Positions 1,544 through 4,819 of a stretch of DNA of 55,632 bases are shown here, piece after piece. Origin of the DNA: a virus. Taxonomy: Duplodnaviria > Caudoviricetes. The stretch is from positions 1 through 55,632 of the IMG/VR virus record IMGVR_UViG_3300045006_000223. One strand, given 5' to 3'. The notes beneath the pieces are model-generated. The model did not search any database and was not told where the DNA came from. It saw only the letters and a list, made by a program, of their open reading frames with translations. How positions within the stretch are numbered: position 1 is the first letter of the stretch; every line of letters starts with the position of its first letter. The position numbers and the translations under genes were made by a program.

Positions 1544-1945
1544 ATGGATAAACAATACAGGCCGGCACATCGGTTCATCGATCACGAGTACCTGCAAAAG
1601 CGCACAAGCCGAACCGTTCGCGCCGGCTACCAAGTTCCGAAGTGGATTTCTTTCTGCTCATGGGCGTTGTCACACGGTCTGCACGTGTTTATTCACGAAT
1701 CGCGCACGACCGTTTCCAAGTACGTTTATGTTTCCCAAGAACGAAACGGCCCGCAGTTCAAGGTTCGCTTTTCCAACCACAAACCGAGCTTTGCCAAAGA
1801 GTCTGCAGAAGACTGTGATTTTTTCGTCGGTGTGACAAACACCGGCGTGCGCACCACCGAGATGGCTGTCAATGCTGTGCTCGCATGGCTGTTTGCCGGG
1901 TCGACAGAAGAAAACTACACCGACCCGCGCCACGGAGGGCAGTGA
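1544..1945 (+). CDS. Hypothetical phage protein (KVRFSNH motif)
   Basis: AGGAG SD, ATG 1544. Confidence 0.8.
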   Translation: MDKQYRPAHRFIDHEYLQKRTSRTVRAGYQVPKWISFCSWALSHGLHVFIHESRTTVSKYVYVSQERNGPQFKVRFSNHKPSFAKESAEDCDFFVGVTNTGVRTTEMAVNAVLAWLFAGSTEENYTDPRHGGQ

Positions 1946-2193
1946 TGAAAAATCGCAGCTGTGGCAATTGCGCTTACCTGCTCGTGCCCTCAAGCCGTAA
2001 CCCGTGCCAGCTGTGCGACGACGAATCAGAATGGCTCCCTTGCGAACTGGAAAAGCTCAAAGCCCAGTGCGACGAGTTAATTGATGCCCTGGGCGATTGC
2101 GGGCATGGCGCATTGTACAGCGGCAAGCCAATCCACCCAGACTGCAAATCTTGCCAACTCGTCGCCAAAATACGCAATGAAGTTCCCAAGTAG
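1942..2193 (+). CDS. Cys-rich hypothetical protein
   Basis: GTGA overlap with the upstream stop; several CxxC pairs. Confidence 0.75.
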   Translation: MMKNRSCGNCAYLLVPSSRNPCQLCDDESEWLPCELEKLKAQCDELIDALGDCGHGALYSGKPIHPDCKSCQLVAKIRNEVPK

Positions 2194-2296
2194 ATTATGC
2201 GGATCGGGATATTCGATGTTCGGTGGACGCTCTGCGGCGTAACTGCGTTACACCGACAACGCGCCAAGTTTTTGGCACAGATTACAGGAGTAAAAG

Positions 2297-2533
2297 ATGT
2301 GGAACTCAATGCTGAATGAATTGAATGAACTGCACACGAGGCTTGAGCAAAAGCCAGATAGCGAAAAAATGGGCTATGCCTGTTGCCCAGGCGGCATATT
2401 GAATGCTTATCGAGAAGCTGACATTACTTTTGCTCAAGCAGTCAAAGCAATCGAAGATTGGGCATTGTCCCAAGGTGCCAAAAACACCGAACAACAGCTT
2501 CAAGCGGATAGCCCCGTTGGGCCTACCGCTTAA
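2297..2533 (+). CDS. Cassette 1 hypothetical protein
   Basis: AGGAG SD; stop codon lies inside attC1. Confidence 0.8.
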   Translation: MWNSMLNELNELHTRLEQKPDSEKMGYACCPGGILNAYREADITFAQAVKAIEDWALSQGAKNTEQQLQADSPVGPTA

Positions 2534-2546
2534 CCAAATGTTCGGT
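2486..2546 (+). repeat. attC site 1
   Basis: ACCGAAC...TTCAAGCGG-A-TAG...CTACCGCTTAA...GTTCGGT; extra C and extra A in the left arm. Confidence 0.9.
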
Positions 2547-2615
2547 GGACGCCTGCACGGCGTAACCACTTCGTTTATTACGCCGACAGGCGCAGACCTT
2601 CGGCGGGGAGGATTT

Positions 2616-2813
2616 ATGGATGGGACTTGCGAATGGACAGAAGAAAAAGAATGGGGCGAATCCATGGGAACATGGGATACTGAATGTGGCAATGCTTTTA
2701 CCATAATTGACGGGACGCCCCAAGAAAATGGATTTAAGTTCTGTCTATATTGCGGAAAGAGCCTTATCGAATCCGCCGAAGGCACCGAACAAGCTAATCA
2801 ACCTGACTCGTAG
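2616..2813 (+). CDS. Cassette 2 small Zn-ribbon-like protein
   Basis: GGAGG SD, ATG 2616; MDGTCEW...FKFCLYCG. Confidence 0.85.
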   Translation: MDGTCEWTEEKEWGESMGTWDTECGNAFTIIDGTPQENGFKFCLYCGKSLIESAEGTEQANQPDS

Positions 2814-2841
2814 TAACTCGCAGGTTATCAGCACGTTAGAT
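2784..2841 (+). repeat. attC site 2
   Basis: ACCGAAC...ATCAACCTGAC...GCAGGTTAT...GTTAGAT. Confidence 0.88.
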
Positions 2842-2898
2842 GGATTCTTGCCGCATATCGCTACGCTGGATATGCGGACGGCGAACAGGGGGTAGAGT

Positions 2899-3123
2899 AT
2901 GGATGGCATGATAAGAATAGAATCGGGTTATGGTGTTGAATTATATGTCCGCCTTGATCTTGCAAATAAAGTGAAAGCGTGTCCAAGGTGTCTTGGCAAT
3001 GGAAGGTTTTGGCATCAGACATTTTTAACCAATGGTCAGCTATATCCCTACGTGATATGGGGGAGTGTTTGCCCTGAATGTGGTGGTAATGGAATTAAGC
3101 ATCTAACAACTGCTTCAACCTGA
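2899..3123 (+). CDS. Cassette 3 protein with two CxxCxGxG motifs (DnaJ-type zinc finger)
   Basis: CPRCLGNG and CPECGGNG. Confidence 0.8.
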   Translation: MDGMIRIESGYGVELYVRLDLANKVKACPRCLGNGRFWHQTFLTNGQLYPYVIWGSVCPECGGNGIKHLTTAST

Positions 3124-3155
3124 CACCTTCGGTGCAGGTTAAGCAAATGTTCGGC
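3101..3155 (+). repeat. attC site 3
   Basis: ATCTAAC...TTCAACCTGACACC-TTC-GGTGCAGGTTAA...GTTCGGC. Confidence 0.92.
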
Positions 3156-3209
3156 GGACACTCCGCAACGTAACTGCGTCACGTTGACTGCGTGCGAAAG
3201 GAAACAAGA

Positions 3210-3488
3210 ATGATTAACTTTTTAAAAGCAAATCCGTTTGAAGTTGATAGCATGGCCTATAAAATAGACGGATATTTTATACCAAATTACACGGGCAATA
3301 AAACCAAAGAAGAAGAGTTTGAACGCGCAAAAAAGGAGCTATTGGGCCACCTTCGACGGCAATTGGAAATAGCCGAGCAGATGCCGTTTGATATATTTAT
3401 TAAACAAAAATCTGTTTCTTTCTCAACAAAACAATATCGGAATGACGCCGAACAAGGCGTTCAAGTGGACGGCAAAGCCGCCACTTAA
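3210..3488 (+). CDS. Cassette 4 hypothetical protein
   Basis: AAGGA SD before ATG 3210; stop codon inside attC4. Confidence 0.8.
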   Translation: MINFLKANPFEVDSMAYKIDGYFIPNYTGNKTKEEEFERAKKELLGHLRRQLEIAEQMPFDIFIKQKSVSFSTKQYRNDAEQGVQVDGKAAT

Positions 3489-3501
3489 CTTAATGTTAGG
3501 T
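3447..3501 (+). repeat. attC site 4
   Basis: GCCGAAC...TTCAAGTGGACGGC-AAA-GCCGCCACTTAA...GTTAGGT. Confidence 0.92.
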
Positions 3502-3560
3502 TGACAAACAACCAGATAAGCCAAATGCGCTTATCTGGATAATTTGCAAAGGAGGTTTTT

Positions 3561-3794
3561 ATGACAGTAGGTGATTTGATAAATAAACTCTCGGCGTTTG
3601 ATGCCAGAACTGAGATTACTATACTTGACGGGTTTAATGGTGGTGGCATACCACGAACCATAAATTTTGGCCCTATTTTGTTCGATCCTCAAGATAAAGA
3701 GCGTACTTTCAATGGAGATGAAATGCAGGACTACTCAGACTTAGACACTCCAAGTGGTCAAAAAATTATTGTAATGGGTTACGGCTCTTATTAA
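3561..3794 (+). CDS. Cassette 5 hypothetical protein (MTVGDLINKL-type phage protein)
   Basis: AAGGAGG SD. Confidence 0.85.
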   Translation: MTVGDLINKLSAFDARTEITILDGFNGGGIPRTINFGPILFDPQDKERTFNGDEMQDYSDLDTPSGQKIIVMGYGSY

Positions 3795-3798
3795 GGAA

Positions 3799-3862
3799 GC
3801 CTAACAACTGCTTCAACCTGACTCAACGCAGTAGCGTTTCGCAGGTTAAGCAAATGTTAGCC
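3799..3862 (+). repeat. attC site 5
   Basis: GCCTAAC...TTCAACCTGAC...GCAGGTTAA...GTTAGCC. Confidence 0.92.
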
Positions 3863-3926
3863 AGATCGGCGCGCCGCATAACTGCGTCATGCGGACGGTC
3901 AACTAAACCGCCCGAAAGGAAGTTTT

Positions 3927-4133
3927 ATGGACGGAAAATGCGAATGGTTGCGCCAGTTTGACGGCCATTTTGCCATTGGTTGCGTTGGCGAAACTGGTGA
4001 ACGGGCAAATGGTAATTTCAAACGTACAAACGACGGTTTGGACGCAAAATGGGATTTTAAGTTTTGCCCCTACTGCGGTCGGGAAATAAAAGTCGTTTCA
4101 ACCGGGCGGCGTCGAACAAAGGTTTCAACCTGA
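3927..4133 (+). CDS. Cassette 6 small Zn-ribbon-like protein (homolog of cassette 2)
   Basis: MDGKCEW...FKFCPYCG. Confidence 0.85.
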   Translation: MDGKCEWLRQFDGHFAIGCVGETGERANGNFKRTNDGLDAKWDFKFCPYCGREIKVVSTGRRRTKVST

Positions 4134-4167
4134 TTCGCTACGCCCACAGGTTAAACCAATGTTCTAC
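4111..4167 (+). repeat. attC site 6
   Basis: GTCGAAC...TTCAACCTGA...CAGGTTAA...GTTCTAC. Confidence 0.85.
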
Positions 4168-4192
4168 AAGGATAAAATAAGAAGGAGGTAAT

Positions 4193-4819
4193 ATGGACCG
4201 CAAAACATGGACGTACCGGCCTGGTGTGTTCACAAGTAAGGACAAGACCGCTATTCGGGGCTTGGCCACCGTAGCGCCGAACGCTGCGCAGATATTCCTG
4301 ACCGGGGAAATAGCCACGGCAAGGCTGTCCGAAGATGACCGGTGGTCGTTGCTTTACGCGAACAACACCGTCGAGCACCCGCTGTTCGAGGAAACCGGGC
4401 AGGCGACGATCCGCATGATGCGCTTCGACGCTCGGCAGGTTTGGCCGGTGCTGTTGCAGGGCCAGCTCGTCAAGATGATGGTCCTGGAAGCCCGGCGGTT
4501 TGGTATCACCGACATGGCACTCACCAAGTTCTGCTTCTACGAAAGCCTGATCGACGTGGCCGGCCTGACGGACACATACGTCACCTATGACAGCCCGACC
4601 CCATCCACGGTCAAGGTGTACTTCAACGCCCTCACCATGTTCGGCAAGCCCATGCTGTGCGGCATCCCTGTATCATGCTTTTTTTCTGCCGACTTCGATC
4701 TGAAGGCTGACCGAGTGGCTGCCAGTCGTGATACACTGAAGGCGCGGGACATGGCCAGGGATAGTAGCCACTTTGCGCCGACCAGCTCCGAGGTGAATTT
4801 TCTGCTCCGGCTGAGTTAA
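4193..4819 (+). CDS. Hypothetical protein (208 aa)
   Basis: AAGGAGG SD, phage-like codon usage; no tyrosine-recombinase RHRY signature seen. Confidence 0.85.
   Translation: MDRKTWTYRPGVFTSKDKTAIRGLATVAPNAAQIFLTGEIATARLSEDDRWSLLYANNTVEHPLFEETGQATIRMMRFDARQVWPVLLQGQLVKMMVLEARRFGITDMALTKFCFYESLIDVAGLTDTYVTYDSPTPSTVKVYFNALTMFGKPMLCGIPVSCFFSADFDLKADRVAASRDTLKARDMARDSSHFAPTSSEVNFLLRLS

Follow-up and report, generated by a model that had tools for sequence, protein, structure and literature searches.

When integron integrases act on attC, their substrate is the folded bottom strand of the site, which they recognize by its structure and extrahelical bases rather than by its sequence, according to the available sections of the paper by Qi, Rajabal, Ghaly, Tetu and Gillings (2023; PMC9892861). 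That paper has already reported clusters of attC sites lacking integron integrases (CALINs) in phage genomes, and the same sections describe inverted GTTRRRY words forming a hairpin at one boundary of an array. The attC site has so far been treated as the only cis element that a cassette needs. We describe here a second hairpin, named H2, which lies outside attC, at the 5' end of the cassettes of a lake-water phage known from an IMG/VR virus record (IMGVR_UViG_3300045006_000223; Duplodnaviria, Caudoviricetes). The window analysed is the whole of this record (55,632 bases, 55.6 kb, about 95% complete). H2 has a fixed position in the cassette, a conserved structure with covariation between its two arms, an asymmetry between strands, and portability from cassette to cassette. 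As phage CALINs are already in print, the array itself is not new; the second hairpin is.

Six small co-oriented cassettes occupy positions 2218-4167 of the window, with crossover G residues at 2218, 2540, 2835, 3149, 3495 and 3856. The original prediction, made from this DNA alone, was that a stem of 8–10 bp begins 16–18 nt past the crossover G in all six, and reading of the sequence confirmed this: the offsets in cassettes 1 to 6 are 17, 18, 16, 17, 17 and 18, and the upper stems of H2 span 2235-2255, 2558-2585, 2851-2877, 3166-3186, 3512-3538 and 3874-3894. The A expected after every stem is present (2256, 2586, 2878, 3187, 3539, 3895), and the apical AACTGCGT is indeed common to three of the stems. 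This A had been called bulged; it is unpaired, as stated, but more precisely it opens the 3' side of an internal loop. R2, a covariance model of the upper stem built on the bottom strand from 17 hairpins (including two of the six from the window), recovers all six sites and matches no other place in the 55,632-base window.

All six H2 features are assigned to the minus strand. H2 of cassette 1 (2224..2266; R2 match 2218-2269) has an upper stem at 2235-2243/2247-2255, a loop at 2244-2246, the unpaired A at 2256 and a lower stem at about 2224-2230/2260-2266, from which A2227 is extrahelical; the whole two-tier hairpin is the fold obtained for the bottom strand (-12.6 kcal/mol, z -2.49) and is absent from the minimum free energy (MFE) structure of the top strand. 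H2 of cassette 2 (2548..2593; R2 match 2540-2598), which also folds, has an upper stem at 2558-2565/2578-2585 with a 12-nt loop, the unpaired A at 2586 and a lower stem at 2550-2555/2587-2592. The third hairpin (2843..2886; R2 match 2835-2891) likewise folds, with an upper stem at 2851-2859/2869-2877, the unpaired A at 2878, a short lower stem and A2844 extrahelical. That of cassette 4 (3157..3195; R2 match 3149-3200), placed from the sequence, has an upper stem at 3166-3174/3178-3186, followed by A3187, and carries a single top-strand A·C mismatch, equivalent to G·T on the bottom; this stem is missing from the single-sequence MFE structures of both strands. In cassette 5 (3501..3549; R2 match 3495-3552), the upper stem lies at 3512-3521/3529-3538, the unpaired A at 3539 and the lower stem at about 3501-3508/3543-3549, and the fold has z scores of -4.47 (bottom strand) and -4.14 (top strand). 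Finally, H2 of cassette 6 (3864..3900; R2 match 3856-3908) has an upper stem at 3874-3882/3886-3894, with one top-strand A·C mismatch and the unpaired A at 3895, and its 9-bp stem is found in the bottom-strand but not the top-strand MFE structure; the stems of cassettes 1 and 6 are thus in the MFE structure on the bottom strand only. No such hairpin follows the last attC, as had been noted: R2 has no match downstream, and the stretch at 4163-4222 is unfolded (-2.0 kcal/mol, z +0.34). Single-sequence folds of H2 are only modestly better than those of shuffles (bottom-strand z -1.0 to -4.5), and the weight of the evidence is therefore comparative.

The leader of cassette 6 (3856-3900) looks chimeric, its first 18 nt or so being like one leader type and the remainder like another. 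Compared with L184 and L220, it agrees with one type in the R' box and the 5' arm of the lower stem, and with another in the upper stem and 3' flank. The R' word of this cassette mismatches the cassette's own inverse core, which is matched by the leader of L184. The mosaic suggests a recombination event within the first half of the hairpin, which is common to both leader types.

Relatives were first sought among viral contigs with a 15-base word from the starts of cassettes 1 and 2, which gave 46 matches, including 10 true relatives, the other matches being due to chance or lying in unrelated genes. With a gapped attC pattern, 75 viral loci and at least 120 bacterial loci (L047-L166) were obtained. 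An attC covariance model, R1, built from 51 sites, had 197 matches; these came from 79 viral sources, and each lay at an attC position or on its mirror strand. Cassette starts were set by an nhmmer re-scan of attC, blind to the downstream sequence, giving 141 non-identical viral starts, all from uncultured phage contigs, and 222 bacterial starts among the matches listed. Stems were sought with a symmetric finder (Watson-Crick pair +1, either transition mismatch -0.5, transversion -2), and H2 was called at a score of at least 6.5. By this measure, H2 is present in 96 of the 141 unique viral cassette starts versus 5.1% of mononucleotide shuffles, and the frequency in shuffled leaders, which the original prediction had singled out as a check, is thus far below that in real ones. 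The stem begins at offset 16-18 in 89 of the 96 hairpin-bearing starts. At least one H2 is found in 48 of the 67 loci with an attC-defined start, and the proportion reaches 72 of 86 for complete cassettes, with attC on both sides; many of the hairpin-less starts are those at the end of an array, where phage backbone comes after the last attC. Presence or absence of H2 goes with no difference in the score of the cassette's own attC or in cassette size (p 0.57 and 0.87). R2 has 167 matches in the same 79 viral sources.

The anatomy of H2 was established from 74 unique hairpins. Upper stems are 7-13 bp long, with loops of 2-13 nt. The base of the stem is conserved as C-S-G and positions 6 and 7 are mostly T-A and A-T, whereas positions 2-5 each take three or four Watson-Crick pair types, as counted by a script not fitted to the model. 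The base past the 3' arm is A in 72 of 74 hairpins, and that ahead of the 5' arm is a purine in 73. The internal loop mostly has 4 nt on its 3' side, beginning with the near-invariant A, and about 3 nt on its 5' side. A second extrahelical A lies at offset 9 and is the A of a conserved GGAY motif right after the R' box. The lower stem keeps a fixed register, with G8 paired to C, A9 outside the helix and a helix from offset 10 onwards, giving a coding-strand layout in which G7/G8 pair with C(C), A9 is out and the lower stem has 3-5 bp. This lower stem was anticipated as a weaker helix beneath the first, and it is borne out by the flanks, which pair better with their own partner than with swapped flanks in 60 of 74 cases and form at least five contiguous pairs in 53% of own combinations versus 4.7% of swapped ones; at its positions 2-4, all four pair types are present. 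As GGAY is the 5' arm of the lower stem, H2 begins where the 7–8 bp R box ends. The suggestion that H2 would sit directly beside attC in a circular cassette therefore holds: H2 starts right after the 7–8 nt R' box, and in the folded bottom strand of either the array or the circular cassette it begins at the end of the R-box helix.

Covariation, another check put forward at the outset, was assessed on the R2-fitted alignment (150 matches, 119 distinct rows, 966 cells), with the script counts serving as an unfitted check. In this alignment, 98.8% of the 966 cells are paired, versus 79.4% in shuffles; changes on both sides are seen in seven of the nine pairs of the upper stem; and the covariation score, 0.506 versus 0.157, is reached by none of 500 shuffles. 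Controls with a slid register gave 30-42% pairing. It is thus structure, rather than sequence, that is conserved in H2. This structure lies outside the attC model, as originally claimed, R1 giving no match on any H2 of the window. The basal AAC/GTT pairing of the attC core is not found in H2, an AAC/GTT box being present in 20 of 74 hairpins, at the apex. H2 does share with attC an imperfect hairpin, an unpaired spacer with one or more extrahelical bases, and the signature of bottom-strand selection.

This signature comes from the mismatches. On the coding strand, the 74 unique hairpins contain 55 A·C-type, 14 C·C, 6 G·T-type and 1 A·A mismatches, and on the bottom strand the A·C and C·C mismatches become G·T wobbles and G·G, respectively. 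The scoring penalized both transition mismatches equally, and the A·C:G·T ratio is 35:5, 21:5 and 18:5 after clustering into 33, 16 and 9 clusters, respectively. With DNA parameters, 55 of the 74 hairpins fold at a lower energy on the bottom strand than on the coding strand. The R2-fitted alignment has 48 G·T versus 3 A·C pairs on the bottom strand, although R2 itself favours G·U. The same method applied to the neighbouring attC sites revealed no strand bias (46 vs 47 of 98), indicating that the bias in H2 is not an artefact of composition; as a positive control for strand bias, attC thus shows none, and its own bottom-strand folding is not independently shown by this method. One-sided mismatches of this kind indicate that the fold under selection is that of the bottom strand, as a sense RNA helix under selection should show the opposite pattern. 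They suggest that the fold of H2 is probably selected on the strand that integron integrases recombine.

H2 belongs to the cassette. Its stem lies at a nearly constant distance from the crossover (sd 0.69 nt), whereas the distance to the start codon is much more variable (sd 6.7 nt; 90 hairpins, with a start codon found for 85). Cassette 1 of the window carries H2 without an attC upstream and the last attC has no H2 downstream, from which it follows that H2 is part of the cassette, not of the upstream attC. Identical hairpins fall into 12 groups, in 11 of which the genes downstream encode unrelated N-termini, and the leader of cassette 5 is identical to that ahead of a different gene in L178. 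Derivatives whose upper stem was removed by deletion across short direct repeats persist in arrays (L234, L194 and perhaps L221). H2 is thus a portable module that recombines independently and may be lost. The crossover itself lies elsewhere: the end of each cassette is complementary to its own start at a mean of 6.5 of 7 positions, which points to integrase-type crossovers, and the word matched is the attC-proximal GTT word, placing the crossover in use outside H2.

The reading that we prefer, tentatively and a little short of calling it probable, is that H2 serves as an accessory module of attC, carried by the cassette and acting as single-stranded DNA folded on the bottom strand. The original prediction of a cis element for cassette genesis, mobilization or expression holds as far as a conserved cis element of the cassette is concerned, and is narrowed here: the one-sided mismatches and the spacing fixed to the crossover argue for a DNA-level, bottom-strand role in mobilization and away from an mRNA processing site. 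H2 might stack on the short R-box duplex and lengthen it by coaxial extension; it may also remove the single-stranded landing pad from which single-stranded DNA-binding protein (SSB) or competing pairings could open attC. In the subclass with a ..TAAC/GTTA.. box in the stem, it could also offer an extra integrase-type half-site. The net result would be an attC folded and recognized more efficiently by the integron integrase of the host, acting in trans; these phages have no integrase of their own. A further step, possible but doubtful, is that the recombination site of phage cassettes is bipartite, consisting of attC and H2 on the same bottom strand, as an adaptation for capture and exchange by host integrases. 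Integrase-less lytic phages with such a bipartite site could have their cassettes exchanged efficiently in a short infection cycle rich in single-stranded DNA, and a shorter form of the module would be present in Treponema chromosomal integrons.

Several observations weigh against an accessory module of attC. The coding-strand hairpin is weaker yet stable (mean -7.3 kcal/mol as DNA and -11.5 as RNA), and a bias towards C-to-T mutation on the bottom strand could contribute to the mismatch asymmetry. The full R'-like word is in register in 20 of the 74 unique hairpins (27%), making the half-site idea one for a minority. H2 is missing from 14 of the 86 complete cassettes and its upper-stem-less derivatives persist, showing that it is not essential. 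The short hairpins of Treponema described below have no bottom-strand bias (12 G·T-type vs 7 A·C-type, among the matches listed). Binding of H2 by an integrase is putative, and a tyrosine recombinase was found in only 1 of the 16 phage records examined. Lastly, H2 always lies in a leader ending with a Shine-Dalgarno sequence, a median of 24 nt ahead of the start codon, and is found in 84 of 122 forward-gene cassettes and in none of the three classed as reverse-oriented.

These last two observations, with the stability of the coding-strand RNA fold (mean -11.5 kcal/mol), favour the idea that H2 works in the mRNA, on the coding strand, as a leader hairpin that would stabilize or process a polycistronic transcript (as an RNase III/E boundary or protective 5' stem) or insulate the ribosome-binding site from the upstream attC hairpin; attC hairpins in mRNA have been reported to impede ribosomes in the available sections of PMC8876359. 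We nevertheless consider this idea unlikely, as the coding-strand mismatches are A·C (55) and C·C (14) and rarely of the G·U type (6), it is from the crossover, not from the start codon, that H2 keeps a constant distance, and 5 of the 13 cassette starts with no recognizable forward or reverse gene nearby still carry H2. Nor is H2 terminator-like, with 2 predicted sites in the region versus 3.7 expected. Alternatively, H2 could be a secondary or vestigial recombination site, a stripped core/inverse-core palindrome with the layout of a simple site, left over from cassette making or serving as an alternative crossover or insertion point. The 20 hairpins of 74 with an AAC-loop-GTT apex are consistent with this view, the 3' arm plus two bases repeating the R' word GTTNNNNNGAY in register, as are the use of the same kind of 7-mers at phage entry sites, the start of L221, which looks like the 3' arm of H2 fused directly to attC, and the inverted GTTRRRY words at a phage CALIN boundary in the sections of Qi et al. 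(PMC9892861) mentioned above. The full word is, however, lacking in 54 of 74 hairpins, loops of 2-13 nt are unsuited to a double-stranded site of fixed spacing, the cassette ends complement the attC-proximal GTT word (mean 6.5/7), and a relic would not retain compensatory changes in seven of nine pairs, making this origin decidedly unlikely.

The many copies that are near-perfect palindromes, with their conserved C-S-G base and T-A then A-T at positions 6-7, could also be taken for a double-stranded operator bound by a dimeric phage or host regulator controlling each cassette. This is very improbable, given that the spacing of the half-sites differs by up to 11 nt (loops 2-13), stems vary from 7 to 13 bp, positions 2-5 covary freely and strand-asymmetric mismatches are meaningless for duplex DNA. 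The RT-priming, branch-site or retroelement-like structure in cassette genesis that was originally proposed as one possibility seems scarcely conceivable and is not supported. It had in its favour the unpaired A on the 3' side of the helix and, to our knowledge, the unsolved origin of integron cassettes; no RVT_1 domain was found in this 95%-complete genome and no group II intron or retron RNA family at gathering score or at E <= 10, the better-paired strand is antisense to the genes, and the unpaired A lies in an internal loop. Three other candidates were rejected. Rho-independent terminators were predicted at the 2 sites mentioned above in 1900-4400 (3.7 expected), where the cassette-5 hairpin is the only one to qualify, on the minus strand, and the position past the stem, where a terminator would begin its T/U run, holds A in 72 of 74 hairpins. 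For sigma-70 promoters (-35/-10 with a 16–18 nt spacer), there were 6 weak sites versus 3.1 +/- 1.7 expected, none recurring at H2. An N4-type hairpin promoter on the template strand does not fit the varying stem and loop lengths, and no single-subunit RNA polymerase was found; a search with PF00940 had no match, although the control likewise matched nowhere.

The long form of H2 is linked to phages in this sample. Among the matches listed, a long hairpin at offset 15-19 is scored in 12 of the 222 bacterial starts; about seven are phage-type (L051, L054, L060, L074 and L123) and the others are different palindromes. In the five metagenome-assembled genomes (MAGs) behind these loci, R2 matches only the contigs already found, and the MAG contig L051 agrees in length and in its leaders with the IMG/VR record L199. 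R2 has no match in five Treponema genomes with the same attC type. Treponema cassettes do often start with a short GC-rich hairpin after GTTRRRYGGAC (L062, L097, L104, L106 and L116, for example), which has one tier only, 5-8 bp long and capped by a loop of 3-6 nt, and begins at offset 10 with the A of GGAC unpaired; the base past its 3' arm is mostly C, which pairs with G8. There are 66 unique hairpins of this type in the 222 bacterial starts among the matches listed. From its layout, the Treponema hairpin looks like a short form of the phage H2: both start at offset 10 after GGAY, with the same extrahelical A and a C opposite G8, but the short hairpins have no upper stem, show no bottom-strand bias and are unmatched by R2. 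No description of the Treponema hairpins was found in the literature searched.

Two further features were seen in these bacterial contigs. In place of a gene, five Treponema attC sites share a downstream GC-rich, structured element longer than 90 nt (L061 2908, L108 4186, L122 676, L147 1739 and L163 65, in oriented coordinates). It opens with a copy of the R' word plus its complement and may be a mobile element targeting attC; its copies in L061, L108 and L122 match no Rfam family at gathering scores. L061, a Treponema MAG contig with integron cassettes, also contains two tandem copies of the Rfam TD-2 family (134-235 and 309-401; 66-67 bits), which are not at an attC or H2 position. These TD-2 copies and a borderline Flavo-1 match in L108 are unrelated to H2.

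The array around the six hairpins is integron-like in other respects. The sites bounding the cassettes fold as integron attC hairpins, and this attC type also fills the chromosomal integrons of Treponema and many other bacterial contigs. All are on the plus strand: the attC of cassette 1 lies at 2485..2546 (R1 match 52.5 bits; folds as attC), that of cassette 2 at 2783..2841 (49.9 bits), that of cassette 3 at 3100..3155 (73 bits), that of cassette 4 at 3446..3501 (51.9 bits) and that of cassette 5 at 3798..3862 (69.1 bits); the last attC of the array, at 4110..4167 (58 bits), is followed by phage backbone without H2. The cassette genes are tiny (median cassette 330 nt across the 86 complete ones), and the GC content of the array is 40-50%, versus 55-60% for its flanks. 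Cassette genes include those for zinc-ribbon proteins (2616-2813 and 3927-4133), and many run into their own attC and end at a TGA within it. Some cassette genes of relatives have N-termini that we take to resemble DNA methyltransferases. A putative exonuclease gene adjoins the array, and a gene for a collagen-like protein with Gly-X-Y repeats, on the minus strand at 1-684, runs off the start of the record. Elsewhere, the window contains phage replication and structural genes (primase, helicases, DNA polymerase and portal), and its largest proteins have no Pfam or PHROG match. No match to GenBank phages was found with megablast (window 1-25000) or blastn (2150-4250), the array region being unmatched among 50,697 GenBank phage records.

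The first cassette is preceded by an entry motif rather than by attC. This array entry site (2194..2218, plus strand) is a degenerate copy of the first-junction motif of related phage contigs, consisting of a core-like 7-mer, 6 nt, an inverse-core-like 7-mer, 4 nt and then G|TT, and the motif is also present at L003, L173, L179, L182, L184, L185, L192, L193, L198, L200, L202, L207, L209, L212, L218, L223 and L232. By its layout, it looks like an attI-type landing site common to many integrase-less phages. No tyrosine recombinase was found in the genome of the window, nor in 15 of the 16 phage records examined, eight of those 15 being estimated as 95-100% complete. The sole one, in the remaining record, is Xer-like, far below family cut-offs and 18 kb from the single attC of that record; an integrase acting in cis was thus rejected, the one candidate being an ordinary Xer-like recombinase far from attC.

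Expression and reads were surveyed in 24 runs, all in the form of contigs. Fewer than one-tenth of the sampled words were present in RNA-labelled runs. In four lake-water DNA runs, the contigs are fragmented, breaking at the attC repeats, and loose contig ends are seen at 2792, 3166, 3800-3801 and 3860, which are attC borders or lie a few bases past a crossover. No bridging joints were seen in the contigs of these four runs, in which uncovered parts are not counted as evidence. The divergence of contigs at attC borders fits the use of the same sites by different cassettes in related phage populations.

No known RNA element accounts for H2. A match to an Rfam family, a further check that had been proposed, was sought with release 15, and no family reached its gathering threshold in the window. 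The best sub-threshold match was M23, with 20.7 bits versus a threshold of 41.2 (E 0.82); this match and one to queA (E 3.7), both in the region 1900-4400, are at chance level, and no other family was matched there at E <= 10. No description of a hairpin at cassette starts was found in the literature searched, supplements and subscription papers such as the Treponema denticola integron report being outside its scope, and the available sections of PMC3607928, PMC8876359, PMC4909258 and PMC6557892 describe none. As we found no description of it, H2 is apparently an undescribed module added to the integron cassette site.

If H2 is under selection, the definition of a minimal cassette, attC-finding software and the designs of synthetic integrons would miss part of the site in at least one large family. 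If H2 does act as an accessory module of attC, it would provide a handle on how integrase-less lytic phages join the cassette traffic; if it is instead an mRNA leader, it would constitute a portable expression module common to hundreds of unrelated small phage genes. The natural asymmetry between G·T and A·C offers ready-made mutations for separating a DNA-level from an RNA-level role.

The closest described arrays are the phage CALINs of Qi et al. (PMC9892861), which, like that of the window, consist of co-oriented cassettes bounded by attC sites, with no integrase; they come from cultured phages, and the available sections of the paper describe no hairpin at every cassette start. Integron attC sites (59-base elements) are the closest structures. 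Like H2, they are imperfect hairpins in which structure is conserved over sequence, with two tiers separated by an unpaired spacer, a variable loop, an extrahelical base and a bottom-strand signature, and they are cassette-borne and adjoin the crossover. H2 differs in lying at the 5' end of the cassette, in being shorter (about 40-60 nt), in having its AAC/GTT box, if present, at the apex rather than the base, and in that no crossover has been seen within it. The attI site consists of a simple site plus accessory integrase-binding repeats, and core-like words flanking the crossover could, as may be the case for H2, recruit more integrase subunits; attI is, however, duplex DNA carried by the integron platform, whereas H2 is conserved as a fold with a variable loop. 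In T4-type phages, promoter-early stem-loops (PeSLs) reportedly flank small accessory genes, as Arbiol and coworkers are said to have described in 2010. PeSLs resemble H2 as a repeated intergenic stem-loop module associated with unrelated small phage genes in a plastic early region, but they contain a promoter and reportedly shuffle by homology, whereas H2 has no promoter signal above chance and is tied to an integron-type crossover. The subterminal hairpins of IS200/IS605 elements and the fork of the CTX phage attP site are single-stranded DNA hairpins read by recombinases. Although the enzymes and the ends of these elements differ, they resemble H2 in that the hairpin is imperfect, is specific to one strand and keeps a set distance from the point of cleavage.

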